Source of the DNA: Cyanobacteria bacterium auto_48_18
Lineage (GTDB): Bacteria > Cyanobacteriota > Vampirovibrionia > Obscuribacterales > Obscuribacteraceae
Direction: 5' to 3'
DNA length: 64,000 nt
NCBI GenBank assembly: GCA_036170915.1
Contig: JAVHQC010000022.1
Coordinates: 255,420-319,419 of the forward strand
Shown: positions 21,727 to 51,326 of the stretch, one piece after another
Numbering within the stretch: position 1 is the stretch's first letter
Layout: the number at the start of each line of letters is the position of its first letter
Translations under genes and position numbers: made by a program
The notes under the pieces: model-generated
The model's input: only the letters and a program-made list of their open reading frames with translations
What the model was told of the DNA's origin: nothing
Databases searched by the model: none

Positions 21727-22050
21727 TTATACGAGTATTTCAAGCCCGTGTTTTTTTGCGATAGAAAGAAGTTTTAGTGCTGCACCCTGTGGACGTGATG
21801 CACCAGACTCCCATTTTTCTACTGTACTTTCACTGGTGTTTAGATAGCGAGCAAATACAGGCTGGCTCACATGATAGCTTTCACGCAATGCCTTAATTTG
21901 TTTTGGTCCTAAAGCTTCAGGCACAGAAAGACAGCTTTCGTCGAATCGACGCATAGTTTCTTTGCTCACGGTGCCGACTTCGTACATACCAGTAACGGCG
22001 CTATGTATTGCTTCGAACGCGTCGCTTTTAAATTTCTTAGTTTTCGCCAT
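21727..22050 (-). CDS. HigA-type antitoxin (XRE HTH)
   Basis: 'IKALRE..HVSQPVFARYLN...TVEKWESG..RP.GAALKLL'. Lies downstream of and overlaps the toxin gene. Confidence 0.88.
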   Translation of the reverse strand: MAKTKKFKSDAFEAIHSAVTGMYEVGTVSKETMRRFDESCLSVPEALGPKQIKALRESYHVSQPVFARYLNTSESTVEKWESGASRPQGAALKLLSIAKKHGLEILV

Positions 22051-22411
22051 GACAGATTTCCTCAAGTTTCTTACCGTGCAGTTCTTTTTCTATGTCAGCC
22101 TCACTTTTGTGTTCATATAAACTGGCTAAATCGCGGAAATTTGCAAGCTCCTTCCGGTCGATATTTTCGCGGTCTTTTTTTGCAAACAAGAATGCATAAA
22201 CCCAGTACTTGCCACCTTTTGCAACAATTATGCTGCGGTGCATGTTTTTGTTCAGTCGTTTTTTGAATACTCCACCGCCGAGGTCGTCGCATTGTCCCAG
22301 CCGCACTTGTTCAAAGGCCTTCCACAAATCAGCATCACTTATTTCGGCCTTTCTAGCAGCTTTGGCAAACCATTCGGTTTTAAAGGCGCGAGCCTCGATT
22401 GCTTCAGTCAT
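22037..22411 (-). CDS. RelE/HigB-family toxin (DUF1044-like)
   Basis: 'FKTEWFAK', 'DLGGGVFKKR', 'FLFAKKDRENI'; toxin-first gene order. Confidence 0.85.
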   Translation of the reverse strand: MTEAIEARAFKTEWFAKAARKAEISDADLWKAFEQVRLGQCDDLGGGVFKKRLNKNMHRSIIVAKGGKYWVYAFLFAKKDRENIDRKELANFRDLASLYEHKSEADIEKELHGKKLEEICHGEN

Positions 22412-27020: not shown

Positions 27021-27290
27021 GTGGCGAAGAAGGTAGCGACGATGAAGACCATTAAGGCAACCGAAGTCAAAAATCATTTTGGTGCCGTTCTTGACTCAGC
27101 ACTGGTTGAACCGGTGATGGTGCAAAAATCGGGTCGTTCCTCCGTGGTGATTCTGTCGGTAACTGAGTATGACCGGCTAATTGCTATGGAAGATGCCTAC
27201 TGGGCTGCACGTGCCAACGCCGCAGAAGCTTCCGGGTTTGTTTCAGCAGTAGAAGTTAAAAAGCTGATTGAGGATTTCGGGGTTGCGTAG
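27021..27290 (+). CDS. Phd/YefM-family antitoxin
   Basis: 'MKTIKATEVKNHFGAVLD.A..EPV.V.K.GR...VILS..EY'. Alternative ATG at 27042. Confidence 0.88.
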   Translation: MAKKVATMKTIKATEVKNHFGAVLDSALVEPVMVQKSGRSSVVILSVTEYDRLIAMEDAYWAARANAAEASGFVSAVEVKKLIEDFGVA

Positions 27291-27558
27291 CCTTATGCTG
27301 AGCAGAGAAGCCACCGATTTTATCCGCAACCTTGAACCAAAGCCTTTTAAGCAAGTCATGAATAAAGTGCTGGCTCTGTTAAACGACCCGCTTCCGGCGG
27401 ATTCACTGACTTTAAGAGGCTACGAGAATTTGTTTCGTACTGACATGGGTGAGCACCGAATAGTGTACCGGTTTGATGCAACAACTATTTTCGTCTTAGT
27501 CGTTGATAAGCGAAACGACGACGAAGTGTATAAAAAATTAGCCCGGAAAAATCTCTGA
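27283..27558 (+). CDS. RelE/ParE-family toxin
   Basis: 'LRGYENLFRTDMGEHRIVYRF...VDKRNDDEVYK'. TTG at 27283 follows GAGG and overlaps the antitoxin stop. Confidence 0.87.
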   Translation: MRSLMLSREATDFIRNLEPKPFKQVMNKVLALLNDPLPADSLTLRGYENLFRTDMGEHRIVYRFDATTIFVLVVDKRNDDEVYKKLARKNL

Positions 27559-27559
27559 T

Positions 27560-28669
27560 TCAAATCAGTTTGGACCAGGTTTGCATTCTTTGTTCTTTAT
27601 CTAACCAGCTGATCGCAGCCCGCGCATTTATAGCTGGTGACTCTTCTGCTACAGAATCAATCAAGCTCGTCAAAACTTGCTCTATATACTGGTCGCCAAT
27701 ATCACTGACACAGAGGCCCAGGTGTTTGTGTTCCAAGACTTCGCTAAGGCAATAAGCTTCTTGACCATGAAATAGCAGCGAGGTGCCGGCCTGCAATGCC
27801 TCAGCCTGTTGCCTTCGCACCACAAATTCGTCAGCCGCTGCGATCTTTTTTTCTAGAGGGGCGCAAATATAAGTGAGATTAGCCTGCGCTATTTTGCTCT
27901 GTGCATATTCTTGCGAAAGTCTTCCAAGCCTGTTCAGCTCTAGACTTTCGGCTGGTCTTACTTCAAAAGTGTCGTCATAGCCGCCAAGGATATCCAGAAT
28001 AATTTTTACAGAATCTGGCCTCTGGGCCAGGCGATTCAATGCGTGGACAAATTTGGCAAATGTTGGTTGCGACAAAGTAGATGGCGCGTGGCAGATTATG
28101 CGGAAACTGTCAGCCGCACTTAAGTTCTGCCTGTTTGCCAACTCAAAATCTACAGGCAAGGGCAAAAGCTCGCATGGTTTATGCAGCTGACTGGTAATGT
28201 GATCATAGCCACTACTAGTAATGGCGGCACATTTTGTTGATTGGGCTATAAGCTTGTTAAATTCATCAATTAAGTGCTGCGAGAATGGTGCCAGGTCTTT
28301 ATTTCCTGCCACCATTGTTTCCATGGTATCGGCAGTGATTGTCACCAGCTCAGCCCCCAGGTCTCGGGCAATTTTGCCTGCTGTGAGCACAATGATTGGT
28401 GAGGCCAGTAGCGCCACTACTAATTCTATTTTTGGTTCAGCGGCCTGGCCGATTTTAAGACCTTCGTCGCAGACTGATTTGACGCAATCAGGAGCTAAAT
28501 TTGACGAGCCAATATTTTTTCGGCCAGGCGCACCCGGCACACTAGGGGCAAATGTAGTGATGGCTCCGCCAGCCGCAGTGGCAAGATCGGCTGCGTATGC
28601 GGCCACATAACTTGATGCTGGAGCGTCAGGTGTAGTCAAAAACAGAATTGCTTTTTCAGCCTCAGCCAT
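27560..28669 (-). CDS. Degenerate GT-B-like protein, paralogue of 24486-25751
   Basis: Collinear similarity to the 24486 ORF by eye; the PxK motif is replaced by 'RRQQAEALQAG'. Confidence 0.55.
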   Translation of the reverse strand: MAEAEKAILFLTTPDAPASSYVAAYAADLATAAGGAITTFAPSVPGAPGRKNIGSSNLAPDCVKSVCDEGLKIGQAAEPKIELVVALLASPIIVLTAGKIARDLGAELVTITADTMETMVAGNKDLAPFSQHLIDEFNKLIAQSTKCAAITSSGYDHITSQLHKPCELLPLPVDFELANRQNLSAADSFRIICHAPSTLSQPTFAKFVHALNRLAQRPDSVKIILDILGGYDDTFEVRPAESLELNRLGRLSQEYAQSKIAQANLTYICAPLEKKIAAADEFVVRRQQAEALQAGTSLLFHGQEAYCLSEVLEHKHLGLCVSDIGDQYIEQVLTSLIDSVAEESPAINARAAISWLDKEQRMQTWSKLI

Positions 28670-30198
28670 TATTTTTTTGCCGCTGGAGCATAGCTGCCTG
28701 GAGTTGCTCCTTCATGCACCGGCGACGCCACATGAGCTGCAGTGGTTGAATAAGTGTCATCTTCAATCGACTCAATCACACTGCCCAGGCCATTATTAGC
28801 CCTGGTATCAACCGTGTAGCGCGCAATTGGTTTGAAGACGAAAGCATTATTTTCTTTGGCAATGCGATTGTATTCAAATTCAATCACTGAATTTTCTGCA
28901 CATGGCAGTGTGCGGGAATAGCGCAGAATGCGCTCTTCGAACAATTCTTTGTTAGAGCAATAATATTTCAAAGTGGTAAAGAGGCTGGTGATGGCGATTG
29001 ATTCACAAACATGACTGAACCTGCCCCAGATGGGCCAGCCATAATTTGAGATCAGCGTTTTCTGGCCTGATGCCTGGTTCTTCTCGTAAATCATGATGAA
29101 GAAATTGACCACATCTACTGAGAAAACTCGCCAGATAATGATGCCGAATGTATTGGTATATTTTTCCAAAAATACTTGAAGCGGCTCTGGCAAACGTTTC
29201 TTCTTGTAGAAATTAAAGAACAAACCAGCATGGCTGAGCGGCAGAAGCACCAGGTAAATCCAGAGAGCAATCTCCAGACACAAAGCGGGAAGTGCTGACT
29301 GGTTTGCGAGCGGCGTGAGCTGACCTGTTTGAGGCAGTGGAATATGGCAGGCATTGAAAATTTGCTGGCACCATACTTCGCCAATTGAACCGGGATGGAA
29401 AAATAAGAAACAGCTGGCTATAACCATTTCGCAAAGCACTCCCAGGCGAATTTGAGTGCGAATGAAAATGAAACTCAAGAGCATGAGGGCGCCGCCCATA
29501 AATCTAGTGGCCGGCACAACCATCAATACCGCTGCAACAACTTCGGTCAGCCATGCCATCTGATCTAGAAAATTGAAAATTGGATTGTTAGGCTTAACCG
29601 TTTTCCAGAACTTCCACCAGTAGCCCCATTCAGGATTGACCATGCCGTATTCCATGCCTTCCTTTACGGCATAACCGGCAGTCATCTTATACAAGCCGGC
29701 CGATAGCATGATCAAAGCAAAGTCGACCTGGGCCACAAGAAGTACAAGACTGCGTTGCATTGGGGCAAACTCAAGTGAGCATTGCAGTAAGAAGACTATG
29801 AAAGCGAGCCAGTAGCTCATAAAGCCAGGCGCGCCCATGCCCCTGGCCACGCCCTTCCAGCGCATCTCGACAAAATAATACCGGCAAATAATCAGATTAA
29901 TCAGCGAAGCCATTAGCGGATGGTAATTGCAGACCAAAGCAATGGCACAACCGAGCCAGGCAGACCCGATCAGCACTGAGGCGAATGGGTTCTGTAAGGC
30001 ATCTTCGCGGGGAGAAGATTTTGCATAGCCGCCAAACTTTTCGCTGATGAAGAACTTATCCCAGCTGCGCAGGCTAATAGCAAAATGGCCAATCAGCAGG
30101 GCACCATAGGTGGTTCTGATTACAGCAAGCATGGTGTCGCTTATTTGGGGCGGAAACGCTGTTGGGCTTAATAGCAGTGGGCTTGTAAGCAGTTCCAT
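28669..30198 (-). CDS. HTTM-domain (vitamin K-dependent carboxylase/LMF/SdpB-like) membrane protein
   Basis: Multi-TM with 'SAGLYKM..GY...GM', 'WLTEV..AVLM..P.TR' and a C-terminal 'GIIIWRVFS' resembling the SdpA/DUF5819 W-x-x-F motif. Confidence 0.6.
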   Translation of the reverse strand: MELLTSPLLLSPTAFPPQISDTMLAVIRTTYGALLIGHFAISLRSWDKFFISEKFGGYAKSSPREDALQNPFASVLIGSAWLGCAIALVCNYHPLMASLINLIICRYYFVEMRWKGVARGMGAPGFMSYWLAFIVFLLQCSLEFAPMQRSLVLLVAQVDFALIMLSAGLYKMTAGYAVKEGMEYGMVNPEWGYWWKFWKTVKPNNPIFNFLDQMAWLTEVVAAVLMVVPATRFMGGALMLLSFIFIRTQIRLGVLCEMVIASCFLFFHPGSIGEVWCQQIFNACHIPLPQTGQLTPLANQSALPALCLEIALWIYLVLLPLSHAGLFFNFYKKKRLPEPLQVFLEKYTNTFGIIIWRVFSVDVVNFFIMIYEKNQASGQKTLISNYGWPIWGRFSHVCESIAITSLFTTLKYYCSNKELFEERILRYSRTLPCAENSVIEFEYNRIAKENNAFVFKPIARYTVDTRANNGLGSVIESIEDDTYSTTAAHVASPVHEGATPGSYAPAAKK

Positions 30199-30199
30199 A

Positions 30200-30715
30200 T
30201 CATGCGCCACGCAAAGTAGAGAAAACGTGCAAGTCTACATATTTGCCATTAGACCAGCGCTCTTCCACGAGAATCGCTTCGCGTGCGTAGCCGGCTTTTT
30301 CAAATGCCTTTTGAGCCGGTAAATTAAAAGCCAGCACGTAACCAGTGAGTTTGTGCAAATTTAGCCATTCAAAACCATACTGTTTGATTAGCGCCAGCGC
30401 TTCAACTCCCAGGCCCTTACCAGAATGTCTGGGGTCGAGCACTATGCGCACTTCCGCCTTGGCGTTTTTAGTATCAATGCCGTGCAACCAAACGTTGCCT
30501 GCATGCTCTTTTGTGTCTAAAGTTTCGATGGCAAAATAGATAGTTTCATCTTTTTTGCCTTTCAAAAGATCAAACCAAATTTCTTGTTCGGCCTGCGAAA
30601 TTGGCGCAGTGCGGCCAAGAAACTTGCAGAGTTCGGTATCATTCAGCCAGGTCAAAGTCTTTTGAGCATGTTCGCGCTCGAAAGTGGCTAATGAAACTTT
30701 AGATCCGCTCAGCAT
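30200..30715 (-). CDS. GNAT acetyltransferase (RimJ/RimL/PseH-like)
   Basis: 'WLND', 'GKGLG.EA', 'GFEWLNLHKL', 'N.PA.KAFEKAGY'. Confidence 0.88.
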   Translation of the reverse strand: MLSGSKVSLATFEREHAQKTLTWLNDTELCKFLGRTAPISQAEQEIWFDLLKGKKDETIYFAIETLDTKEHAGNVWLHGIDTKNAKAEVRIVLDPRHSGKGLGVEALALIKQYGFEWLNLHKLTGYVLAFNLPAQKAFEKAGYAREAILVEERWSNGKYVDLHVFSTLRGA

Positions 30716-31836
30716 GTAGTTTTAGCAGTAGCCTTTGGTTCGTAAATTTCTACTTCGGCACCGAGATCTTCTGCCATGATTTTCTTCAGGTGATCGCCAG
30801 ATTTTTGCAGAACGTTGAGCCAGCCGTAATTCCAGTCACGCACGCCGGCAAACCAGGCAGAGCAACCACGGCATGGGAAACATTCAGTTCCGCGACCGGC
30901 CATGTGCATTTCGCGATACCACTTGAAGGTCTCGCCTTGCCAAATGTCTTCAATAGAGACGTCTTTAGCATTGGGGAAGAGGTCTGAAGTCTTGAAAGTA
31001 ATGTCTTGTCCACAAAGGGCAATGCGACCAAGAGTATCAACGTTTAGTCTTTCGAAAGGCCAAACGCAAGGCTCTTTTGGTATCACTTTTTCGTTTGAGT
31101 AGAGATGCTTATCGAGTGCTTTGCCTTCTGGAATTTGTGTGTTGTCATCCCAGGTGAGGAATTTACGCGTGATTACTTCGTCTACGCCAATACCTTCATG
31201 CCAGAATTTTATTGCTTCATCCAATTTGCCTTCAATCAATTCTTGACGAATGATCGAAACTACAATTCTGGTCGGCCCTCTGAGCTCGTTGCGTTTTGCA
31301 ATGGCATATTTGACGTTGTTGACCTGTCTTTCCCACCATTCATCAGCTGTGCGGGTCATGCCACCTCTTGGTGGTCGAACTTCGGCATAGGTTTCAGCGT
31401 CGCCAGCGTCCATTGAAAATTCAATCAAGTCGACGCCGCAGGCGAGCAGGCGGTCAAGACGGTCACGATCGCGCTTCACTGGCCCGAACATGCTGCCATT
31501 GGTATTCAGCCAAACGCGTGCGCCCTTAGATTTGCCATACTCGATCATGTCGACCATGCCAGGGTGAAGCATAGGTTCACCACCGCCGGTGCAACGCATC
31601 CAGGCACCATATTTGCCGCATTCGTCGGCAATGCTGTTCCAGAGGTCTACTGGGAACAGCTCGGCGCTGTTGTCTCTATAAAATTTTCTAATCTCGGAGT
31701 TGCCGTCGGTATAAGGGCACATGGGGCAGCCAAAATTGCATGGATATATGATCGATAGTACGACCATTAAAGGGAATAGCTCTGCGCTAGGACGTATGCC
31801 CTGCTTGTCTAAGCTGCTTTGGGTTCCATTTGACAT
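30709..31836 (-). CDS. Radical SAM protein with twitch/SPASM auxiliary-cluster domain
   Basis: CNFGCPMC (CxxxCxxC), GGGEP, TNG; C-terminal C-x17-C...SIEDIW...CxxCxxC. GGAG RBS before ATG 31836. Confidence 0.92.
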   Translation of the reverse strand: MSNGTQSSLDKQGIRPSAELFPLMVVLSIIYPCNFGCPMCPYTDGNSEIRKFYRDNSAELFPVDLWNSIADECGKYGAWMRCTGGGEPMLHPGMVDMIEYGKSKGARVWLNTNGSMFGPVKRDRDRLDRLLACGVDLIEFSMDAGDAETYAEVRPPRGGMTRTADEWWERQVNNVKYAIAKRNELRGPTRIVVSIIRQELIEGKLDEAIKFWHEGIGVDEVITRKFLTWDDNTQIPEGKALDKHLYSNEKVIPKEPCVWPFERLNVDTLGRIALCGQDITFKTSDLFPNAKDVSIEDIWQGETFKWYREMHMAGRGTECFPCRGCSAWFAGVRDWNYGWLNVLQKSGDHLKKIMAEDLGAEVEIYEPKATAKTTC

Positions 31837-31936
31837 AGTTGCCGCTTCACTCCACCGATAAGTCCCATAGATCATCCAATGTATGGGATACCCGTGTCAA
31901 TGAAAACCAGGCCAACAAGTAGAATTGCAATGGAAT

Positions 31937-31965
31937 TTGGCCTTATTGTGAATATGTACTAAAGT
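31937..31965 (+). promoter_or_regulatory. Putative sigma70 promoter of the decayed TA locus
   Basis: TTGGCC-17 nt-TAAAGT, 14 nt upstream of the remnant's TTG. Confidence 0.45.
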
Positions 31966-31979
31966 TGGGCCGTGGTACT

Positions 31980-32050
31980 TTGACAATCCGCTTCGATGTA
32001 GACCCGCACAATTGAAGGCTTACCGTCGCAGGAGGCGGAGCAAGAAATGA
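31980..32050 (+). pseudogene. Internally deleted toxin gene remnant (BrnT/DUF4258-like)
   Basis: N-terminal fragment (M)TIRFDVDPH is joined out of frame to the C-terminal fragment LKAYRRRRRSKK*, whose stop overlaps the next ATG (ATGA). Confidence 0.6.
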
Positions 32051-32247
32051 GCAACAAAGACTTTCCGCCCGGATGGAACCAAGATCGCGTAGAAAAATTA
32101 CTAGCCCATTACGAGCAAATGGATGACGACGTTATGGTGGCTGAAGATGAGGCTGCGTCGGAGCTATCAGGGCAGACCCTCATGGTTGTTCCGACACAAT
32201 ATGTGCCGGCGGTTCGAGAATTGATTGAGCGTAAAACTAGTGCGTAG
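32047..32247 (+). CDS. Small acidic putative antitoxin
   Basis: 66 aa 'FPPGW...RV..LLAHYE......VAEDEA......M.VP...VP.VRELI'. Strong AGGAGG upstream. Confidence 0.7.
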   Translation: MSNKDFPPGWNQDRVEKLLAHYEQMDDDVMVAEDEAASELSGQTLMVVPTQYVPAVRELIERKTSA

Positions 32248-32364
32248 AGCACCTCATTAGTTGTTCACTGTCAAACACCTGCTAGATTAAGCAATTTATT
32301 TGTTGCTAAAGTCTAGGGCCATTGCTTTAGACTGTGGATACCAAAAAATTTAGAGGCGTAGTCT

Positions 32365-34299
32365 ATGTGCGGCATTGCAGGAATATTCGGCTCAGGTGAC
32401 CGAGACCTGGTAGAAATCATGCTTAATCAGCTGATTCACCGCGGGCCAGATGACGGTTTCATCGTTCATGACGACAATTTTGCCATGGGTGCTCGTCGCC
32501 TCAGTATTCTCGATTTAGCTGGCGGTCGGCAACCGCTGTCTAATCAAAGTGGCTCAGTATGGGCCTCTCAGAACGGCGAACTTTATAACTATCAAGCCAA
32601 GCTTGAAATGCTAAGGGCGCGCCAACATCAGTTTGTAACCAGATGCGACACCGAGATTTTGCCGCACCTTTACGAAGAATTTGCCGAAGATTTCGTTAAA
32701 CATATCGATGGTATGTTCGCTGTAGCCATATGGGATACGGCGAAAAATTCAGGCATCTTGGCCCGTGACAGGCTAGGAAAGAAACCACTTTATTACACGC
32801 AAATTGGCGATGTACTTTACTACGCCTCTGAAATCAAGGCACTGTTGCACGTGCCTGAATTTAAGCGCACAGTCAATTTAGAAGCATTGCATCACTATTT
32901 AAGCTTCAAGCATGTACCTTCGCCGCAGACGATTTTCAATAATATTTACGCTTTACCTCCGGCTCATTATCTAGTTTACAAGCGCGGCCAAACCCCCAAG
33001 CCTGTGCGTTATTGGGATTTGTCATTCAAGACCAATGCTGATTTAGCAAAACTCGATGAGAGTGAGCTGGTAGATATTTTCCTTGATAAGTTCCGTCAGG
33101 CCATTGCCAAACGCGTGATTGCCGACGTACCTATTGGTTTCTTCCTCAGTGGCGGGCTTGATTCCAGCCTCGCTACGGCGGTGGCGGCCGAGTCTTCCAG
33201 CGATCCGATTAAGACTTTTACTTTGACTTACAAAGGCGATTCGAGCACCGCCGGTAAAGACTTAGATAAAGAGTGCGCTAAGTTTGTAGCGGCCAAATAT
33301 AAGACCGAGCATCACGAAGAAACTGTTGAATTCAGCCAGTTTCCAACAAACATCAAAAAGATTATTCGCTGCTTCGATGAACCGTTTTCAGGCACTGTTT
33401 CAACCTATTTTTTGGCACCATTAATCAGACAAAACGTTACTGTGGCTATCTCAGGAGACGGTGCTGATGAGCTTTTTGGTAGTTATCTCTCCCATCGTCT
33501 AGCCTCTCCCCTGGCCCAATGGCCTGACTATTTGAAGACGCAAGATAGCAGTGCGCTAAAACCTTTCGAAGAGCAAATCGACTATCTAAAGGGCCTTTAC
33601 GAGGTTAATGATTGGGCCTGGCGAGCCAAGCTTTTTGTCTTGAGCGATGAAGCCAAAGCCGAACTTTATTCTTCAAGCGTCGCTGAAAAAATGTCTAAAT
33701 TTAGTTCGCAATTGCTTTTACGCGATGACTTTTCTAAATTGACCGCCAATGCAAATGATGCCCTCAATCGCGTGCTCGAAGCCGAATACAAGACAATCTT
33801 CCCCGATCAGGTGCTGGCCTTTGTTGACAGGCTAAGCATGGCCCATTCACTAGAAGTGCGCAGCCCATATCTTGATACTGATGTGGCGGAATTTGTCGCT
33901 TCACTGCCAGGCAATGTCAAAATCAAAAATGGCGAGACCAAATATTTGCTCAAGCAAGCCGCCCTGCGCTTTCTACCAGAAGAAATGGTGAAGCGTAAAA
34001 AAGAAGGCTTTGTCATGCCGATTACTGATTGGCTGCTCAAAGATCTGCAAGGTTATGTGCGCGAGACCCTGAGCCCGAGCAGATTAGCTGCTCACGGATT
34101 GTTTGACAGCGGTAAAGTAGAGGCGCTGATGAATCAAATCTATAGCAACGATTCAGACTACCGCGAAGTCAATAAAATATACGCCCTGCTGGTTTTCCAA
34201 GAGTGGTACGACATTTATATGGGTTCTGCAAATAGCAATAGTAAAGAGCATGTGCTCAAAGTCGATTCTATGCGGGTGACGGCTGCGCTTTCGAAATAG
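32365..34299 (+). CDS. asnB: Glutamine-dependent amidotransferase, asparagine synthase B family (glycan amidation type)
   Basis: N-terminal MCGIAG, HRGPD, NGELYN, LSGGLDSS, SGDGADELF, DRLSMAHSLEVR. Confidence 0.93.
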   Translation: MCGIAGIFGSGDRDLVEIMLNQLIHRGPDDGFIVHDDNFAMGARRLSILDLAGGRQPLSNQSGSVWASQNGELYNYQAKLEMLRARQHQFVTRCDTEILPHLYEEFAEDFVKHIDGMFAVAIWDTAKNSGILARDRLGKKPLYYTQIGDVLYYASEIKALLHVPEFKRTVNLEALHHYLSFKHVPSPQTIFNNIYALPPAHYLVYKRGQTPKPVRYWDLSFKTNADLAKLDESELVDIFLDKFRQAIAKRVIADVPIGFFLSGGLDSSLATAVAAESSSDPIKTFTLTYKGDSSTAGKDLDKECAKFVAAKYKTEHHEETVEFSQFPTNIKKIIRCFDEPFSGTVSTYFLAPLIRQNVTVAISGDGADELFGSYLSHRLASPLAQWPDYLKTQDSSALKPFEEQIDYLKGLYEVNDWAWRAKLFVLSDEAKAELYSSSVAEKMSKFSSQLLLRDDFSKLTANANDALNRVLEAEYKTIFPDQVLAFVDRLSMAHSLEVRSPYLDTDVAEFVASLPGNVKIKNGETKYLLKQAALRFLPEEMVKRKKEGFVMPITDWLLKDLQGYVRETLSPSRLAAHGLFDSGKVEALMNQIYSNDSDYREVNKIYALLVFQEWYDIYMGSANSNSKEHVLKVDSMRVTAALSK

Positions 34300-34328
34300 A
34301 AATAGAAACTAGAAGTTTGAAACTAGAT

Positions 34329-35054
34329 ATGAACACAGAAACAAAGACTAAAACCCTTGCCGTGCTTCAACCCGGATATATTCCCTGGCTGGGTTTTTTT
34401 GACCAATTAGACCGATCTGACGTTTTTGTTTTTTACGATGATGTGCAATATGACAAAAACGGCTGGCGCAATCGCAATCGCATTAAGACACCAAATGGCC
34501 CCATGTGGCTCACTGTGCCCGTTAAAAGTGTGCGCCTTAGCCAATCGATTGTTGATACTGAAATTGATGACAGCCAACAGTGGCGCAAAAAACAAATCAA
34601 TACTATTGAGCAGTTTTACAAAAAGGCTCCCTACTTTCAGCAATACTTTGCTGAATTTCGCGACCTTTTAAGTAACCCCTGGGCCAATATTGCCGAATTA
34701 GACATCGCTGTAGTCAAATATTTAGCCGCCCAATTAGGGGTGACTACAACTCTATGCCGCTCTTCAGAGCTTGACATTAGTGGCGATAAAAATGAACGCT
34801 TACTCAATCTATGTCGACATTTTAATGTAAATCGCTATTTGACCGGCAATGCGGCTAAAACTTACCTGGCGACAGACCTTTTCGCCAATCAAGGTGTAGA
34901 AGTTTGTTGGCAAGATTATTTTCATCCAGAATATCCGCAACTCCACGGCGACTTTGTTCCATACTTGTCTACGCTGGATCTTCTGCTTAATTGCGGACCA
35001 GACAGCTTAGAAATACTACGCGGCAACAAGCGGCAACCGGAACACAGTACATGA
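34329..35054 (+). CDS. WbqC-family protein
   Basis: 'QPGYIPWLGFF', 'DDVQY.K..WRNRNRIKT', 'WLTVP', 'YPQL...F...LS.LDLL.N.G'. Confidence 0.9.
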   Translation: MNTETKTKTLAVLQPGYIPWLGFFDQLDRSDVFVFYDDVQYDKNGWRNRNRIKTPNGPMWLTVPVKSVRLSQSIVDTEIDDSQQWRKKQINTIEQFYKKAPYFQQYFAEFRDLLSNPWANIAELDIAVVKYLAAQLGVTTTLCRSSELDISGDKNERLLNLCRHFNVNRYLTGNAAKTYLATDLFANQGVEVCWQDYFHPEYPQLHGDFVPYLSTLDLLLNCGPDSLEILRGNKRQPEHST

Positions 35055-36079
35055 AAACTATCTTAGTCACGGGTGGAGTAGGCTTCATTGGTTCAAACCT
35101 CGTAAGGCATCTCTACAAAAAATACCCTGATTACAAAATCGTCGTAGTAGACGCGCTTACCTACGCAGGCTCCATTCAAAACAGTCCAGACAACGCCTTT
35201 GGCTCTGACACTTATGAGTTCTGGTACGGTGATGTACGCAACGGCGAACTGATGGATACACTGGTTTCGCAAGCCGACGTGGTCGTGCATATGGCGGCCG
35301 AGTCGCACGTTACCAGGTCAATTTACGATAACCGCCTGTTTTTTGAAACCGATGTAATCGGTACGCAAACGGTGGCAAATGCGGTGGCAAAATTCTCCGA
35401 TCGCATAGAGCGCTTTATTCATATTTCTACTTCTGAAGTTTACGGTTCTGCTCTTTCAGAAAAAATGGATGAAGATCATCCGCTCAACCCCATGAGCCCA
35501 TATGCCGCCGCTAAGTGTGGTGCCGATCGCCTCGTCTACTCTTACTGGAGCACTTACAACATTCCCGCTGTAATTGTTCGACCATTCAATAATTATGGCC
35601 CCAGCCAGCATTTAGAAAAAGCAGTGCCACGCTTTATTACCAGCTGTTTGCTAGACGAACCGCTAACAGTGCACGGTGACGGGTCTGCCGCCCGCGACTG
35701 GTTGTTTGTTGAAGATCACTGTGATGCATTAGATGCCATCATCCATGCTCCTAAAGAAAAAGTTGTGGGCAAGACCATTAATATCGGCACTGGCGAGCAC
35801 AAGTCGGTAAAAGAAATAGCTGAGGCTATTGTGCAAATCATGAAACCAAAAGTTTCGAAAATCGAATTTATTGGTGATCGCCCAGGTCAGGTTTTCCGCC
35901 ACACTTGCGATGCCACTCAGGCCCGCGAGCTGCTTGGCTGGGCACCGAAGACTTCATTTGAAGATGGCCTTGCTAAAACAATTGAATTTTACGAGAAAAA
36001 TCCAGAGTGGTGGAAACCACAAATGTGGATGCGCCACATTCCGATTGTCACCGCTTCAGGTAAGAAGGAAATGCACTGA
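35051..36079 (+). CDS. dTDP-glucose 4,6-dehydratase-like (RmlB/RfbB family)
   Basis: 'GGVGFIGSN', 'DALTYAG', 'AAESHV.RS', 'HISTSEVYG', 'PYAAAK', 'NNYGP.Q..EK', 'DRPG'. Confidence 0.87.
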   Translation: MKTILVTGGVGFIGSNLVRHLYKKYPDYKIVVVDALTYAGSIQNSPDNAFGSDTYEFWYGDVRNGELMDTLVSQADVVVHMAAESHVTRSIYDNRLFFETDVIGTQTVANAVAKFSDRIERFIHISTSEVYGSALSEKMDEDHPLNPMSPYAAAKCGADRLVYSYWSTYNIPAVIVRPFNNYGPSQHLEKAVPRFITSCLLDEPLTVHGDGSAARDWLFVEDHCDALDAIIHAPKEKVVGKTINIGTGEHKSVKEIAEAIVQIMKPKVSKIEFIGDRPGQVFRHTCDATQARELLGWAPKTSFEDGLAKTIEFYEKNPEWWKPQMWMRHIPIVTASGKKEMH

Positions 36080-37218
36080 TGTCAGCTCAAGCTCAAGCCG
36101 TTGCTTTTTTTATGCACGATCTCGGTCAGTCAGAAATTGACGCCATCACTAAAGTGTTCGCCGGCCCAATTCTGACAACCGGAGCCACGGTAGGTGAGTT
36201 TGAGAAACAATTCTCTAAACTTCTAAACTGCAAATACACCCTGGGCGTAACAAGTTGCACCGGCGCTTTGCACATGTCACTTCTGGCACTTGGTGTCGGT
36301 CCTGGTGATGAAGTAATCACCACACCAATGACATTTATCGCTTCTTCAACAGCCATTCTTGAAGCTGGAGCCACACCGGTTTTCATTGATGTCGAAGCTG
36401 AAACAGGCAATCTAGATGCCACAAAAATTGAAGCGGCCATAACCTCTAAAACCAAAGCCATACTGCCAGTGCATTTGTTCGGTCAAATGTGCGATATGAA
36501 AGCAATTCGTAAAATTGCCGATAAGCACGGGCTGTTTGTCATTGAAGACGCCGCTCACTGTGTTGAAGGCGAGCGTGACGGCATCAAACCTGGTCAGCTG
36601 GGCGACACTGCGTGTTTCTCATTTTATGCCACCAAAAATTTGACCTGCGGCGAAGGTGGTGCCGTTGTCACCAATAGCGATGATCTTTATCAAAAGCTCG
36701 TACTGCTGCGCACTCACGGCATGACTAAAACTGCTGCCGACAGGTCTGTTGAAGGCTATAAGCACTGGGATATGAAAGTGCTGGGCTGGAAATACAATAT
36801 GGATAACATTCAGGCGGCAATTTTATTGCCTCAAATTGAAAGGTTGCCTGCCAGCTGGGATAAGCGCGAGAAGTTAGCTCAGTACTATGAAAGCCGACTG
36901 GCTGGAATTAAGGGCGTGAGCAGACCGTCTAATCATGCAGGGGTAAAGCACGCCTGGCATTTGTATCCGGTCTGGATTTCTGGCGGCAAGCGCGACCACT
37001 TCATCGAACAGTTGCAGCGGCGTGGCATTGGCGTAATGGTCAACTACAGAGCCATTCACTTGCTCACCTATTTTAAAGAAACGCTCGGAGTTGAAGCGGG
37101 TGCGTTTCCTGTCGCTGAGAATATTGGCGATTCTACAATTTCGCTGCCTTTCTACCCGGGCATGCCGTTTTCAGACGTTGATCTGGTGGTGGCGGCTCTA
37201 AGAGAAATCGCGGCGTGA
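36079..37218 (+). CDS. DegT/DnrJ/EryC1/StrS PLP sugar aminotransferase
   Basis: 'GPGDEVIT', 'IEDAAH', 'FSFYATKNLTCGEGG', 'SLPFYP'. Confidence 0.93.
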   Translation: MSAQAQAVAFFMHDLGQSEIDAITKVFAGPILTTGATVGEFEKQFSKLLNCKYTLGVTSCTGALHMSLLALGVGPGDEVITTPMTFIASSTAILEAGATPVFIDVEAETGNLDATKIEAAITSKTKAILPVHLFGQMCDMKAIRKIADKHGLFVIEDAAHCVEGERDGIKPGQLGDTACFSFYATKNLTCGEGGAVVTNSDDLYQKLVLLRTHGMTKTAADRSVEGYKHWDMKVLGWKYNMDNIQAAILLPQIERLPASWDKREKLAQYYESRLAGIKGVSRPSNHAGVKHAWHLYPVWISGGKRDHFIEQLQRRGIGVMVNYRAIHLLTYFKETLGVEAGAFPVAENIGDSTISLPFYPGMPFSDVDLVVAALREIAA

Positions 37219-38957
37219 TACCAAATGTGGTGCGGAAAGCAAAGCGTTTTGTCAACGGTTTGCTGGCGCCCGAAGTTACCTCTGCCTTGCCGAACATCGC
37301 CGGTGAGGCTTTATTTGATACTGATTTTGGTTTTGCTTTTAGCTTTGAATGTCCGGGCGGCGAGCGGCCCCTGCTCGGTATTGAGTTTGATTTGCTGATT
37401 GAAAAAATTGAGCATGGTGCAAAACCTGATGCTCAATTGTTGTTGCCATATTTATGTGCAGAAATTCTTGAAAATAGAATCGAAGCAAACTATCGCCTGG
37501 CTCAAGCCTGTTTCAAAAGCGATAATCTAACTGATGCAAAAACCTTCATAGATCGCACCTGGCGCCTTTGTGGCGGCCGGCCTATTTTTCTTCCCCTTCT
37601 GCTTAAAATCAATAGTGCTACTGGTCATATAGAAGCGATTCGCTCAGCTTATAAAACCTTGGGCATGACAGCAGCGGGCCAGGGCGAGATCGAGAGTGCT
37701 ATTGCTTATTTCGACCTCTGGCATTACGCGGCCATGACTTATGCCAGAGAAGATAGATACGAAATAGACGCTGATATTATTGCTGCTATCGACAGATTAG
37801 CTGCGCCTTTCAGGTCAGCCCAAGCTGCTGCTACAGCCAGAAGTGGAAAAATTAGAGTTGGTTATTATCTTCGCGGTGTAGTTGAACTCAATTCGGTGCT
37901 GCTTAAAATCAGTCACGTCTTGATCAACTTGCATGACAAAGAGCAATTTGAAATTGTGGCGATTGTGCCTGAAACAGTAGAAGAGGTGAGGCGCTCACCT
38001 CAGGGCCTAGAGCATGTGGAGCGCCTGAAAGCCAGCGGATGCGAGGTGCTTTGCAATAGTTTTGTCGAACTACCCAAAGGCCATGTAGTTGAGTCTTTAA
38101 CCGGTTTAGCCAGACAGATTGAACAAGCAAATCTGGATATTCTCGTCACCAGTGCCTCACTGGTTGATTTTTCAACTTGTTTCATCACTGCCCTGAAACC
38201 TGCGCCCAAGCTGCTTGGTTTGGTACAGGGGCCGCCCGGTCAGTTCTCGCATCCTCAATTAGATTGGTCGATTGCCTGGTCAAAACATCCGCTTATGGAT
38301 AGCCCCTGCAATTCTACTTTGGTAGAGCTGAAGATGACCGGCAAGCCGCCTGAGGTAACTTCGCCGGCAAGTAAACAAGATTTGCTTGTGCCGGAGAATG
38401 CCCGAGTGCTGATGAGCAGCGGCCGGTTTGCTAAGTTTCAAGATCGCCAGCAATGGCAGGCGATAAGCGAAATGCTTGTGGAAAACGACAATTTATATTA
38501 TGTGGTTGTAGGCACTCTTGCTGAGCAGATTTTAGACTTTGAGAGTATGGTAGCGCCGGCGGTGCGCGAGCGAGTTAAGTTTTTAGGATGGCGCACTGAT
38601 TTTCACAGGCTGGTTGCCTTAGCCGATGTATTACTAGACACGTATCCATCAGGTGGTGGGCAGGTAATTGTAGAGGCCATGGCACAGGGGATTCCGGTGG
38701 TTGCACACCGCAATGATTTTCTAAAGGAGTTTGCTCAGACAAGCTGGTCGCCGGTAGAAGATTTTGTCAGAGATGATGAGTTGCTTGTGCGGCGCGGCGA
38801 TTTTGAGGCACTAAAAGCCATTGTGCGCAAACTTTTGAGTGATGATGCAGCCTGGCAGCGCGCCTCTGCTTCGTGCAAGAACAGTATGGCTGGAGCCGAC
38901 CCTTTAGACGGCCTGAGGCAGTGCGAAGCAGTTTATAAAATGGTGGCAGGAAGATAA
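37215..38957 (+). CDS. TPR-like plus GT41/GT-B glycosyltransferase
   Basis: Helical TPR-like N-half, 'KIRVGY', 'HDKEQFEI', 'ADVLLDTYPSGGG....EAMAQGIPVV'. Confidence 0.7.
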   Translation: MIPNVVRKAKRFVNGLLAPEVTSALPNIAGEALFDTDFGFAFSFECPGGERPLLGIEFDLLIEKIEHGAKPDAQLLLPYLCAEILENRIEANYRLAQACFKSDNLTDAKTFIDRTWRLCGGRPIFLPLLLKINSATGHIEAIRSAYKTLGMTAAGQGEIESAIAYFDLWHYAAMTYAREDRYEIDADIIAAIDRLAAPFRSAQAAATARSGKIRVGYYLRGVVELNSVLLKISHVLINLHDKEQFEIVAIVPETVEEVRRSPQGLEHVERLKASGCEVLCNSFVELPKGHVVESLTGLARQIEQANLDILVTSASLVDFSTCFITALKPAPKLLGLVQGPPGQFSHPQLDWSIAWSKHPLMDSPCNSTLVELKMTGKPPEVTSPASKQDLLVPENARVLMSSGRFAKFQDRQQWQAISEMLVENDNLYYVVVGTLAEQILDFESMVAPAVRERVKFLGWRTDFHRLVALADVLLDTYPSGGGQVIVEAMAQGIPVVAHRNDFLKEFAQTSWSPVEDFVRDDELLVRRGDFEALKAIVRKLLSDDAAWQRASASCKNSMAGADPLDGLRQCEAVYKMVAGR

Positions 38958-39973
38958 TGCACCTTCCCAGAACAATTGCAGCATTTATTGTATTTTTGAT
39001 GCTTTGTAGTGCAGTAATTTTGTCGCCGCCCAGATTTGGCGAGCAATCAGGTTATGCCGCTTTGATCGACAAGCATGCCCGATTGGCGGAAATCACTTCA
39101 CCTAAAATCGTACTAGTGGGCGGTTCAAATGTAGCTCTCGGTATCGATAGCACTGTAATTGAGAATGTAATGAGCCGTCCGGTTGTTAACATGGGCTTTG
39201 GCTGCATTCTGGGTTTGCGCTACATGCTCGAGGAGGTCAAAGGCAATTTGTCACCAGGCGATATTGTGGTGATAATGCCTGAGTATGATTTCTTTTGTGT
39301 GACCACTAATCTGGAATCAAATGCCAGAGTCAATGGCAGCAGCGCATTACTTAATTTGGTTCTGGTATTTCCGCAAGCAAGCCAGTGGGTGCTACGCACG
39401 TATGCGAGTGCCCCGGAAAGAGTTTTTGACTTCATTTATGACTGCCGGCGCCTTGTTTTAGCAAAGGTGGAGTTTTATCAGCGCGTTTTGCGCAGTCGTT
39501 ACGACAAGACTTTTCCAAAAACGGAAGACCTTTTGGGCGGTGCCATCAACATGTATGATCACCGTGAGGCCTATAATTCACATGGTGATATGACTGCACA
39601 TTTGCAGAAAAAATCGCCAGGTCTTAATGGCATGGAAGTTATTGCTTACGGCAACTATACTTTTAACGATGAAGCTGGTGAAGTAGTGCGGAAATTTGCC
39701 CAGTTTGCGCTTGAAAAAAATGTGCGTGTAGTGGTGGCACCACCTCCTCTTCCGGAGCGGGTATACAAAAAGTATAAAACCCGTGCGGACGATATCTTCG
39801 CGCACTGGCAGAAGATACCAAATGTGGAAGTAATAGGCTCGCCTGAACAGTTTTCCTTTCCTGAAAACTACTTTTTTGATACTGCTTATCATTTAACTAA
39901 ATTTGGTCGCAATTTAAGGTCAGAACTAGTCGCGCAAGAACTTTTCAAGTTAGCGCCGGCAAGTCACCTTTGA
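38957..39973 (+). CDS. SGNH-like membrane-anchored protein
   Basis: N-terminal TM, 'LVGGSN', 'NMG', C-terminal 'FFDTAYHL'. Confidence 0.62.
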   Translation: MHLPRTIAAFIVFLMLCSAVILSPPRFGEQSGYAALIDKHARLAEITSPKIVLVGGSNVALGIDSTVIENVMSRPVVNMGFGCILGLRYMLEEVKGNLSPGDIVVIMPEYDFFCVTTNLESNARVNGSSALLNLVLVFPQASQWVLRTYASAPERVFDFIYDCRRLVLAKVEFYQRVLRSRYDKTFPKTEDLLGGAINMYDHREAYNSHGDMTAHLQKKSPGLNGMEVIAYGNYTFNDEAGEVVRKFAQFALEKNVRVVVAPPPLPERVYKKYKTRADDIFAHWQKIPNVEVIGSPEQFSFPENYFFDTAYHLTKFGRNLRSELVAQELFKLAPASHL

Positions 39974-39995
39974 TGAGAACTGTGGTTGCAAACCG

Positions 39996-41714
39996 ATGAC
40001 TAACATTCTGGCATGGCGTAAACAACCTTTTGTTCTGGCAGTGCTGTTAGTGGGTGCTCTGACATTATTTGTGCGTATAGTTTTTGTTCAAACCTTTAAA
40101 ACCAATGATGATGTTGGCCTCTCCATGATCTGTTCCGGTTGCGGTTATTCAGATACACCCGACCCACACTTGATGTTTACCAATATTTTGCTGGGCCGGG
40201 CCTTAGCCGGACTGTACACGATTTTTCCGAACGTTGCCTGGTACGGGCACTATCTGTTGATTGCAAATATTGTTGGCCTGACAGCGGCCGTCACCGCCCT
40301 ACTGAGAAAACGAGCTACGGCCGTTTCCATTTCTCTAGTGCTGATCTTTTTCCTAGCTGTTGGTTTAAATAATCTCGTGCTTTTGCAGTTTACCACCGCG
40401 GCCTGTATGGTCTCCCTGGGCGGTGTGGCAATGATTCTAAGTTGGTTGGACGATGACATACCGCTATCACCCCGAGGGCTGGCTCGACCAGCTATAGCTA
40501 TTCTTTTGCTGATTATCGGTTCTCTAATTAGATTTGAAAGCTCATTATTGATTGCCATTCTGGCGGCCCTGGTTTTTGCAGTGAAATATTTGCTCGGCGA
40601 TAATTTCAGTCTTTTTCGTCAGGCAAGGAGCTTTATTGCCTCTGCCGGCGTCATCTTCATGGCCGTCTGTGCGGCGCTGGCATTGCATCTGTATAATGGC
40701 TGGGAGTACCGCCAGGCGCCGGGTTGGGAAGACTTTTACTCAGCCAATGTTTTGAAGTGCGATTTTGTTGACTATGGCTATGGCCGCTCTTGCTCTGATG
40801 AAAAAAAGAAAGAAGCGCAGAGGGCGGCCAATTGGACAGACAATGACTTATTGCTGGCGCAAAATCTCTTTTGTTTAGACACTGACAGATTTTCGGAAAA
40901 GCGAATGCTCGCGGCGACACAAGTATTACGAGGCACAAACTATTCTTCTCTGCTTGAAGTTTTTAAAGACTTTGCCCAAGTCTTTGAAAATAAAATGATT
41001 GTGCCTATTTTAATCACCTCTCTTTTACTCTTCGCTGTCTATCAAAGTTCATCTCTCAGTAGAAAAAGATTAGCGGTGCTCGCCCTTCTAATCATTGGGC
41101 TAATGTTGACGTTGCTGGTCACGCTAAAACTGCCTGAACATGTTTATTTCCCCATTTTTTCATTCTTCTTGTTTGTTTTGCTCTATCACATTGACGCCGA
41201 AGCGTTGAGAGAAAAGTTTGTTCGCTCCAAATTACGACTACCTGTGTCGCTTGCAGCCTGCGTTATGGCCTGCGTGCTTTTGTATATGGCTCACCAAAAC
41301 TATTTTGTCAGAGGACAAAATATTCAAGCCCAAAATCTCTTGTTGAGGAAAGCAATCAATGATCTAAAACCAGATGCGCAAAATTTATACATTGTCTGGC
41401 GAGACTTCTTTCCGTATGAATATGTTCTGCCGTTCAATAACATCAGGAGCTATTTCAAAAATTTCAAAATCTTGCCCTTAGCATTTCGTGCCAGTGCACC
41501 ACTTGCGGCCAATAGAATGAAGCAGTTTGGTCTGAATTTGGATAACCTTGGCACGCAGCTGACAAACAAAAATATTTTCTTGATCAGCGGAGATGAGCTT
41601 AATCCACTGATGGTGACATACCTGCGTGAGCATTATGGTCTGGACGCCAAACTGAAACTATGTCGGGAGTATCCAGAAGTTAGATTGCGCGTTTATCAAA
41701 TTGTGAGGCTTTAA
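39996..41714 (+). CDS. Polytopic membrane protein, putative GT-C ('NDD' family copy 1)
   Basis: 'FKTNDD', 'PDPHL', 'WY', 'LQFTT', 'GWEDFY..N', 'WTDND'. Confidence 0.6.
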   Translation: MTNILAWRKQPFVLAVLLVGALTLFVRIVFVQTFKTNDDVGLSMICSGCGYSDTPDPHLMFTNILLGRALAGLYTIFPNVAWYGHYLLIANIVGLTAAVTALLRKRATAVSISLVLIFFLAVGLNNLVLLQFTTAACMVSLGGVAMILSWLDDDIPLSPRGLARPAIAILLLIIGSLIRFESSLLIAILAALVFAVKYLLGDNFSLFRQARSFIASAGVIFMAVCAALALHLYNGWEYRQAPGWEDFYSANVLKCDFVDYGYGRSCSDEKKKEAQRAANWTDNDLLLAQNLFCLDTDRFSEKRMLAATQVLRGTNYSSLLEVFKDFAQVFENKMIVPILITSLLLFAVYQSSSLSRKRLAVLALLIIGLMLTLLVTLKLPEHVYFPIFSFFLFVLLYHIDAEALREKFVRSKLRLPVSLAACVMACVLLYMAHQNYFVRGQNIQAQNLLLRKAINDLKPDAQNLYIVWRDFFPYEYVLPFNNIRSYFKNFKILPLAFRASAPLAANRMKQFGLNLDNLGTQLTNKNIFLISGDELNPLMVTYLREHYGLDAKLKLCREYPEVRLRVYQIVRL

Positions 41715-47947: not shown

Positions 47948-48625
47948 TCAAAAAGAACCGCTCAACATGGAGATAAATCTATCACTGGTCAGTGGTGCTT
48001 TTGCCGTTTGATTATTTAGAAAAACTTCTTTTGGCCCGGTGCTTTTCGTTATTAATGAATTGGCGCCGATAAAGTTTTCTTCGCCGATGATCACATCATT
48101 CGAAATCGAAGCGTTTATGCCGATGAAACTGAAGGGCATGATCTTGACGTGACCGGCCATGCATACATTTGACGTAATCCAGCAATGGTCAGAGACTATA
48201 GACTGGTCGCCGATCTGATTTGAACTCCAAATAGTGACATTATTTCCAATCTTAACATCGAAATTAATTGAGTTATTTTCTAGAATAAAACAGTTTTCGC
48301 CTACTTCCAGTTCATCGCCAAACTGAATAGTAGAACTTACGTAACTGGCAAGGGTATAGCCTTTTTCTTTGCATGCCATGTATTTGTCATATCGCAAGCG
48401 ATTGAGATTCTGGCTACCCAGAGGTACGAACAACTTGAATTGGTCAGGAGGAAAGAGTACTTGAACCTGGTCAAAGTCGACGACCGGTAAACCGCGATAT
48501 TCATCACAGTTCAGAAATTGTTTCTCCACAGTAAACGCACAAACTTGGTAATCACTATCTTTGCTCAAATAACGGTGGGCCACACTGGCACCACGCCCGG
48601 TGCCGAAGATAACAACTTTAAGCAT
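47948..48625 (-). CDS. Hexapeptide-repeat sugar acyltransferase (NeuD/PglD-like)
   Basis: N-terminal Rossmann 'IFGTG' plus LbH repeats (VGENCFI, IGNNVTI, IGEENFIGA). Confidence 0.87.
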   Translation of the reverse strand: MLKVVIFGTGRGASVAHRYLSKDSDYQVCAFTVEKQFLNCDEYRGLPVVDFDQVQVLFPPDQFKLFVPLGSQNLNRLRYDKYMACKEKGYTLASYVSSTIQFGDELEVGENCFILENNSINFDVKIGNNVTIWSSNQIGDQSIVSDHCWITSNVCMAGHVKIMPFSFIGINASISNDVIIGEENFIGANSLITKSTGPKEVFLNNQTAKAPLTSDRFISMLSGSF

Positions 48626-51210: not shown

Positions 51211-51326
51211 TGATTAATCCACGCTGAAACGCATTGTAGGACCCAATTCTATCAAATTGCAGTATTTACTTGAAGCCAAAACGACACAATGTCACGAAAT
51301 CGTGCACATCTTACCCGTTCTGGCAG

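Follow-up and report, generated by a model that had tools for sequence, protein, structure and literature searches.

The window analysed here is a stretch of 64,000 nucleotides from Cyanobacteria bacterium auto_48_18 (Obscuribacteraceae; assembly GCA_036170915.1, contig JAVHQC010000022.1, positions 255,420 to 319,419), in which two divergent gene groups between positions 27560 and 41714 bring sugar-pathway genes together with a radical S-adenosylmethionine (SAM) gene and a membrane-protein gene. All eleven open reading frames (ORFs) listed in an earlier sequence-only reading were verified in the window, with tight junctions on both strands. On the minus strand, the radical SAM gene (30709-31875; start at 31836 and 375 residues in the database gene call) overlaps the GNAT N-acetyltransferase gene (30200-30715) by 7 nt, the GNAT stop lies 1 nt from the ATG of the membrane gene (28669-30198) at position 30198, and the latter overlaps a glycosyltransferase-like gene (27560-28669) by 1 nt. 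On the plus strand, the genes coding for an AsnB-type glutamine amidotransferase (32365-34299), a WbqC family protein (34317-35054), a nucleoside diphosphate (NDP)-hexose 4,6-dehydratase (35051-36079) and a DegT-family sugar aminotransferase (36079-37218) are followed by accessory genes. Overlaps amount here to 4 nt for WbqC/dehydratase, 1 nt for dehydratase/DegT, 4 nt for DegT/glycosyltransferase and 1 nt for glycosyltransferase/SGNH-like, and gaps of about 20-30 nt lie between AsnB and WbqC and between the SGNH-like and GT-C-like genes. The description of these groups as a four-gene minus-strand operon and a tightly packed plus-strand operon is thus borne out.

Pfam likewise agrees with the calls made for the radical SAM enzyme (Radical_SAM with SPASM/twitch), GNAT, AsnB, WbqC (274 bits), dehydratase and DegT. 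AsnB, which possesses an N-terminal Cys glutaminase domain and a synthetase domain, reaches 431 bits with TIGR01536 (cut-off 267), and the GNAT is PseH-like below cut-off. As for the dehydratase, it is RmlB-like according to Pfam and NCBIfam and forms a distinct subfamily, 59-79% identical across loci.

The distribution of these genes was followed in a GTDB scan, which returned 78 loci of 90 relatives, with at most 10 kb on each side and many loci short. Within the 78 loci, AsnB was found in 61, the radical SAM enzyme in 58, the dehydratase in 44, WbqC in 43, DegT in 41, GNAT in 35, a DCC1-like protein in 24, Wzt in 24 and Wzm in 17. The membrane gene is accompanied by the radical SAM enzyme, AsnB, WbqC and dehydratase in 36 loci, 30 of which also carry DegT; these 30 span about eight groups (Melainabacteria, Acidobacteriota, Planctomycetota, Nitrospirota, Methylomirabilota, Latescibacterota, Binatia and Dormibacterota), so that the co-occurrence in unrelated phyla, set as a check in the sequence-only reading, was indeed found, and was found genome by genome as well. 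In 41 of the 78 loci, AsnB is the gene immediately after the membrane gene, and the radical SAM gene is present in 37 of the 41 loci reaching 20 kb. Most loci consist of a single co-directional operon, the divergent layout of the window being a local arrangement and not the general one. Nor does the whole 14 kb behave as one system, since the glycosyltransferase-like gene at 27560, the SGNH-like gene and the GT-C-like gene each occur in 0-1 of the 78 loci and the glycosyltransferase with tetratricopeptide repeats (TPR) in four.

Of 80 metagenome loci recovered with the radical SAM enzyme in a reverse search, among them three near copies of the window, 51 contain the membrane gene; where at least 2.5 kb of downstream sequence is available, it is present in 31 of 34. 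At the genome level, the membrane and radical SAM genes were found in the same four of 61 relatives and the same two of 351 genomes of a second phylum (6/412). Two of these six genomes are search centres and the others may overlap the GTDB loci, so that the informative part is the absence of any genome with one gene but not the other. The cassette-type AsnB occurs in the same four of the 61 relatives, and the dehydratase in these four plus one more.

Linkage extends to genomes in which the genes are scattered. Where the radical SAM gene is missing from the locus, it was found elsewhere in 13 of 15 genomes, and WbqC was found in 11/11 genomes of such loci vs. 2/14 controls. In five genomes of this dispersed type, AsnB (50-53% identity) and the dehydratase (63-67%) were both found five times out of five, DegT (33-38%) being the least fixed part. 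The dispersed genomes examined have the cassette split into GNAT-AsnB, nucleotidyltransferase-WbqC-dehydratase, radical SAM gene and membrane gene. About a dozen loci, first read as carrying standalone membrane genes, were reassigned when whole-genome searches found the partners elsewhere. As a whole, the core genes are linked far beyond chance, and the seven linked genes very probably form, at the level of the module, a conserved cassette for a modified amino sugar.

Several variants were observed among the relatives. In L177 (9288-10808), L060 and L064, a distant copy of the membrane gene is next to isocitrate dehydrogenase, which releases CO2, and L060 also has, by eye, a carbonic-anhydrase-like neighbour. 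One genome (G159) carries two copies of the membrane gene, and in L050 (2202-3704) a B12-dependent radical SAM gene lies directly 3' of it. In the dispersed genomes (L155, L158, L160, L243 and L246), genes for an IQCH-like ATP-grasp/PGM1-C protein and for a deaminase often come after the radical SAM gene.

Concerning the membrane protein (509 residues, nine predicted transmembrane (TM) helices and a soluble C-terminal domain), no Pfam or NCBIfam match was obtained. Pfam HTTM (PF05090) matches 3 of 100 family members weakly (best E 0.0029) and LMF1 one of 100 (E 0.18); a PF05090 search of the window's own genome found three other genes, the membrane protein of the cassette not being among them. 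At least 960 proteins in the database belong to the family, which reduces to 337 representatives when clustered at 50% identity; the names in 20 clusters looked up were all 'hypothetical protein', one Atlas cluster has HTTM in 21% of its members, and a PDB sequence search with the family profiles gave chance matches only. No relatives were found in plasmids, phages or viral contigs, and no longer or fused form was found, the latter being weak evidence. Of note, the same genome carries elsewhere three canonical SdpB-type HTTM genes (L079, L080 and L081), one of them fused by eye to a DCC1-like domain.

The HTTM fold suggested for 28669-30198, on which the earlier proposal had been staked beforehand, was recovered at the structural level. 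An AlphaFold (AF2) model built from 100 sequences has a predicted local distance difference test score (pLDDT) of 95.8, and its top 16 Foldseek matches are all human GGCX (best E 9.8e-8, probability 1.0, TM-score 0.47, identity 12-15%). With VIA-align, GGCX is matched at Z 17.5 (root-mean-square deviation (rmsd) 6.2, 355 aligned residues) and the next unrelated chain at Z 6.4, the alignment covering both membrane and soluble domains (residues 12-490 on 36-510). On the strength of this model, the assignment to the GGCX/HTTM fold stands despite the failure to reach the Pfam HTTM cut-off.

The catalytic residues were mapped through bacterial VKGC-like proteins of the same phylum, which match GGCX at E 2.5e-32 and the membrane family at E 1.6e-5 (local) and 4.9e-8 (global). 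By this transitive alignment, K171, invariant in 100/100 members, falls in the column of GGCX K218 at the end of TM5; the accessible parts of two reports (bioRxiv 10.1101/2025.02.09.637231; PMC12647623) describe K218 as the catalytic base which deprotonates vitamin K hydroquinone. For the residues lining the quinone and CO2 pocket of GGCX, a weak profile alignment pairs W223 with Y/F176 (K+5), F299 with L255 and M401/M402 with V358/F359, all of them conserved hydrophobic or aromatic residues in the family. Reuse of the GGCX fold without quinone chemistry, for example for binding an undecaprenyl-linked sugar, as a membrane transferase or as a scaffold, is improbable: an isoprenyl tunnel in GGCX, as far as the accessible part of the source goes, and a large sequence divergence with two canonical residues lost would suit it, whereas conservation of K171 and of the aromatic and hydrophobic residues around it is complete or nearly complete over 27-79% identity, and separate glycosyltransferases accompany the cassette.

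The orientation of the protein in the membrane was estimated from lysine plus arginine counts per face, for which the helix ends were set manually with the help of the model and the alignments. On the side of K171 and the soluble domain there are 0.125 of these residues per residue vs. 0.055 on the other face; even without the four invariant pocket residues, the K171 side is the richer one in 98 of 100 family members. Counted in this way, the bias was reversed in 4/4 VKGC-like and 6/6 SdpB-like controls, none of the ten canonical HTTM controls, a small set, sharing the bias of the family. By the positive-inside rule, the K/R-rich face is cytoplasmic. The active site of GGCX is on the extracytoplasmic face. 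The charge bias and this rule would thus place the catalytic face in the cytoplasm, on the side of nucleotide sugars and partner enzymes, with a predicted topology inverted relative to GGCX.

Across loci, the radical SAM enzyme shows 41-72% identity, with a median of 69%. C33/C37/C40 (CxxxCxxC) and C257/C275/C322/C325, the latter four in the BtrN spacing of a four-Cys twitch domain, are invariant in 49/49 sequences. Among additional cysteines none is invariant (C82 in 46/49, C319 in 37/49); in radical SAM epimerases of the HygY/NeoN type, a conserved spare Cys is the hydrogen donor. No NCBIfam cut-off was reached. The nearest proteins of solved structure are BtrN (E 2e-7), BlsE (E 3e-7) and 7wzv (E 8.5e-4) by profile, and DesII (E 2.6e-11, TM-score about 0.53, identity 16-18%) by fold. 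The enzyme shares with BtrN, BlsE, SpeY and DesII a kinship of sugar- or nucleoside-acting proteins and the BtrN-like spacing of twitch cysteines, but is 15-18% identical to them, an orthologue of none, and found in surface-glycan loci instead of antibiotic clusters. By analogy with these enzymes, an oxidation or dehydration of the sugar ring is its likely reaction.

A direct partnership with the membrane protein on that ring, in which the radical SAM enzyme would form a keto or radical intermediate and the quinone-binding membrane protein would take the electrons or carboxylate beside the new carbonyl to give an oxidised or C-branched carboxy sugar for amidation by AsnB, appears rather unlikely. 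It would agree with the two genes never being apart in 412 genomes, with their pairwise distances, the radical SAM enzyme correlating best among the partners of the membrane protein (rho 0.69; rows not independent), with four invariant BtrN-like twitch cysteines and no invariant spare one, and with the many invariant Arg/Lys residues on the catalytic face, which would suit a nucleotide diphosphate. Conversely, the conserved core contains no ketoreductase by which a beta-keto acid could be stabilised; the two genes lie far apart in Vulcanimicrobiota-type genomes, in which GNAT stays with AsnB; and AsnB distances track those of GNAT (0.76) and WbqC (0.66) more than those of the dehydratase (0.31).

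The nature of the sugar is suggested by enzymes exchanging places between loci. GNAT and a formyltransferase share one slot (36 vs. 11 loci by clustering, both in none), and WbqC (43 loci) and an ATP-grasp module (seven loci) never occur together, all these counts being inflated by related genomes. WbqC is a proposed aminoacyl/glycyl transferase to a 4-amino sugar. This pattern fits an amino sugar to which an amino acid is attached first and an acyl cap afterwards, in line with the product class advanced from the sequence alone, a further modified N-aminoacyl aminosugar. In the literature on WbqC, no title about its activity was present among the matches listed, and no solved relative was found for WbqC or for the SGNH-like protein. 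N-acetylglycine is reported on the O antigen of E. coli O121 in the accessible parts of two papers (PMC7685785; PMC3210612).

Other replacements and additions were noted among the loci. Locus L074 (3271-5238, minus strand) carries a natural formyltransferase-radical SAM fusion, with a GNAT also in the locus. In a Pyrinomonadaceae variant (L012, L015, L017, L018, L021, L022 and L028), a NAD-epimerase, an ATP-grasp protein, a hexapeptide acetyltransferase, a different AsnB, an alpha/beta hydrolase and a HAD protein stand in place of WbqC and GNAT. Nine loci (L005, L006, L010, L020, L039, L042, L043, L055 and L058) have an M20 peptidase and AAC(3)-like acetyltransferase pair inside the cassette, often with a methyltransferase alongside.

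The product would likely be a further modified N-acyl-aminoacyl 4-amino-6-deoxyhexose, made by a cytoplasmic pathway for a surface glycan. From what is known of their families, the dehydratase and DegT would give an NDP-4-amino-4,6-dideoxyhexose, to which an amino acid, probably glycine, would be added by WbqC or, in certain loci, by an ATP-grasp ligase; the swapping suggests that its amine would then be capped by GNAT or the formyltransferase. AsnB requires a carboxyl group. A single query, with the genome's own uridine diphosphate (UDP)-sugar dehydrogenase, retrieved no NDP-sugar dehydrogenase able to supply a uronate, neither from the window nor from 158 loci. Since AsnB needs a carboxyl and adjoins the membrane gene so often, and since this query found no such dehydrogenase in its loci, the GGCX-fold enzyme would be the simplest source. 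By analogy with GGCX and MloH, K171 would deprotonate menaquinol, and with O2 a strong base would form and take the proton next to the side-chain carbonyl, to which CO2 would add, giving for instance an aminomalonyl group. AsnB would turn the new carboxyl into a carboxamide, the radical SAM enzyme may oxidise or dehydrate the ring as do BtrN, BlsE and DesII, and a local glycosyltransferase would finally move the sugar onto a glycan, often exported by Wzm/Wzt. That the GGCX-fold enzyme carboxylates the aminoacyl side chain, AsnB then amidating it, is our tentative preference, held at somewhat less than even confidence. A bacterial precedent is MloH (malonomycin), which carboxylates an aspartyl unit according to the accessible part of the report (bioRxiv 10.64898/2026.08.19.745780). 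All five hosts tested carry futalosine-pathway menaquinone genes and heme-copper oxidases, with MenD below cut-off in each; such genes are common, and their presence gives weak support.

Several further points weigh against this carboxylation scheme or against the cassette on which it is built. N159 and H160 of GGCX form the glutamate site and are needed for carboxylation in the accessible parts of two reports (bioRxiv 10.1101/2025.02.09.637231; PMC12647623), the second of which, as far as it was accessible, ties CO2 binding to them (PMC12647623). They are not conserved in the family: their columns hold M127/S128 in a family-specific loop (R-G-x-G-A-P-G-F-M-S), in a region of weak alignment, and the canonical HTTM histidine is replaced by an invariant Phe243. 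With 12-15% identity to GGCX and an rmsd of 6 Å, the pocket mapping depends on weak profile alignments (E 1.6e-5). From these alignments, the quinol half of the active site looks kept and the substrate half rebuilt. Other HTTM proteins are tied to peptide dehydration or maturation, not to carboxylation, in the accessible parts of two studies (PMC9927463; bioRxiv 10.1101/2020.07.09.196543). Carboxylation of the side chain leaves the radical SAM enzyme unexplained as the tightest partner, and no aminomalonyl sugar appeared in the literature among the matches listed. A UDP-sugar dehydrogenase is encoded elsewhere in the genome, so that AsnB could amidate an ordinary uronate. The substrate role given to WbqC is a general family proposal, loci L074 and L142 carry both GNAT and formyltransferase, and one relative (G186) has a dehydratase orthologue (61%) without the other cassette genes.

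Some of these points would suit a different carbanion chemistry of the membrane enzyme, such as an epimerisation or a dehydration, on the side chain or on the ring, of the kind proposed for linaridin-type HTTM proteins, the carboxyl for AsnB coming from a transferred Asp/Glu or from a uronate made elsewhere. The lysine is kept while N159/H160 are lost, and LinG/LinH are implicated in dehydrobutyrine formation in the accessible part of the literature. This alternative is nonetheless unlikely, if worth keeping in view: glycine has neither a stereocentre nor a leaving group, the protein is a single chain with a soluble domain like GGCX/MloH and unlike the split LinG/LinL or SdpB/DUF5819, and the tight adjacency of membrane gene and AsnB would be left unexplained.

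Whether carboxylated or not, the sugar is most readily placed on a surface polysaccharide. A glycolipid, a protein glycan or a small-molecule sugar as the final product is very improbable, even though the transferases accompanying the cassette are diverse (GT2, GT4, LPG-synthase-like flippases and large unassigned membrane proteins) and the genes are dispersed in Vulcanimicrobiota-type genomes. Against it stand Wzt and Wzm, in 24 and 17 of the 78 loci, respectively, and the window itself, which in its entirety is a glycan locus of 64 kb: it encodes numerous glycosyltransferases, Wzm (at 15123), WecE and another WbqC, and a Wzt lies about 6 kb before its start. Moreover, neither a precursor peptide nor a nonribosomal peptide synthetase (NRPS) or polyketide synthase cluster was present among the gene clusters recurring in at least three of the 78 loci. 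A ribosomally synthesised and post-translationally modified peptide reading had also been considered and was rejected, the neighbours being sugar genes.

Compared with known systems, the membrane protein shares with human GGCX (PDB 9wfc, 9bvq; bioRxiv 10.1101/2025.02.09.637231; PMC12647623) and MloH the TM plus soluble fold, the lysine column and the single chain, and, in a weak alignment, an aromatic residue at K+5 and hydrophobic wall residues. It differs by its low identity (12-15%), by the lack of a Pfam HTTM match, of N159/H160 and of the HTTM histidine, by its predicted inversion and by its neighbours, which are nucleotide-sugar genes and not peptide or NRPS genes. With the split HTTM proteins of linaridins (LinG/LinH/CrdG) and of SdpB/DUF5819, as described in the accessible parts of PMC9927463 and bioRxiv 10.1101/2020.07.09.196543, it has in common the HTTM helical core with its lysine (HHalign E 1.1e-5), and a DCC1-like thioredoxin adjoins the membrane gene in 24 of the 78 cassette loci. 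Unlike them, it is not split, has no recurring precursor peptide and shows the opposite charge bias; no LinL/LinE or SdpA partner was found among the clusters recurring in at least three of the 78 loci, where ORFs below 55 residues were not called.

The closest pathway is that of Qui4N(N-acetylglycyl) in E. coli O121 and Shigella dysenteriae 7, with the same set of dehydratase, DegT, WbqC, acetyltransferase and AsnB-like enzymes. In O121 these roles are held by RmlB, VioA, WbqC/WbnG, an acetyltransferase and the AsnB-like WbqG, and AsnB amidates a uronate made by a dehydrogenase of the cluster. A dehydrogenase of that kind was not found in the cassette loci with the single query used, and we know of no radical SAM or HTTM enzyme in the O121 pathway. 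Neither an HTTM protein acting on glycans nor a description of the cassette was found in the open literature, most subscription journals lying outside this search.

The cassette would be a nucleotide-sugar tailoring system resting on two undescribed families, one with the GGCX fold and one of radical SAM enzymes, its genomic support being strong and its chemistry proposed. In fold and key lysine the membrane family resembles VKGC, although it is not classed as a member. The interpretation first given to the locus is supported in part, for the fold and the linkage, with a product class that fits the enzyme swaps, and not for the 14 kb as one system; the chemistry of the radical SAM and HTTM steps is putative. 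Among bacterial VKGC relatives, the published cases found act on peptides or NRPS intermediates. Here the family comes with a whole pathway of mostly soluble and predictable enzymes, from which the substrate could be built stepwise. A flipped GGCX-fold enzyme, the first of VKGC type on a carbohydrate, would carboxylate a nucleotide- or lipid-linked amino sugar in the cytoplasm and, with obligate radical SAM and AsnB partners, yield a malonamide sugar new to glycans in at least eight phyla, mostly uncultured; this full proposal is doubtful and is put forward with more reserve than the carboxylation step alone. If true, quinol/O2 carbanion chemistry would reach sugars, the known radical SAM reactions on sugars would gain a new one, a nine-helix enzyme fold would provide a natural example of inverted topology, and an undescribed surface sugar would be expected in Acidobacteriota, Planctomycetota and further lineages of soil and freshwater. 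Even without carboxylation, the radical SAM-HTTM pair marks an unassigned chemistry.

The accessory genes of the window are less widely shared. The minus-strand protein at 27560-28669, confined to close relatives, had been called GT-B-like; this likeness is retained as that of a degenerate GT-B/GT4-like protein through one distant paralogue at 24486 (E 6e-15), itself weakly GT4-like, and has no other basis. The plus-strand protein at 37215-38957 matches GT4-type Pfam families and structures plus a weak TPR, and, with no GT41 among its matches, the former GT41-like call finds no support; it is a candidate transferase for the sugar in this lineage. The membrane-anchored protein at 38957-39973 (plus strand) has a G-x-S-N motif and lacks a strict D-x-x-H, and that at 39996-41714 (plus strand) has 11 predicted TM helices; neither Pfam nor the other libraries used support their respective SGNH and GT-C assignments, which are left unconfirmed. 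The latter protein and those at 54818-56548 and 58177-60447 are three paralogues with 8-11 TM helices and no family assignment (E 1e-43 to 1e-65).

Between the divergent operons, a promoter scan gave results at chance level (one found vs. 1.2 expected), and the gap contains a 66-residue ORF (32047-32247, plus strand), putatively antitoxin-like. The nearest named locus is that of Ca. Obscuribacter (L001), with flanking genes 89-99% identical. Other small genes of toxin-antitoxin type lie between the glycan sub-cassettes, namely RelE plus a helix-turn-helix protein at 21727-22411 (minus strand) and, by eye, a Phd/RelE-like pair at 27021-27558 (plus strand), the 66-residue ORF being an orphan; these genes may mark recombination points. 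Finally, a second acyl-sugar module is present at positions 47948-52925, with a NeuD-like acetyltransferase, a DltA-like adenylation enzyme, a FabG-like reductase and the second WbqC, 38% identical to the first, while WecE is located at 42460.

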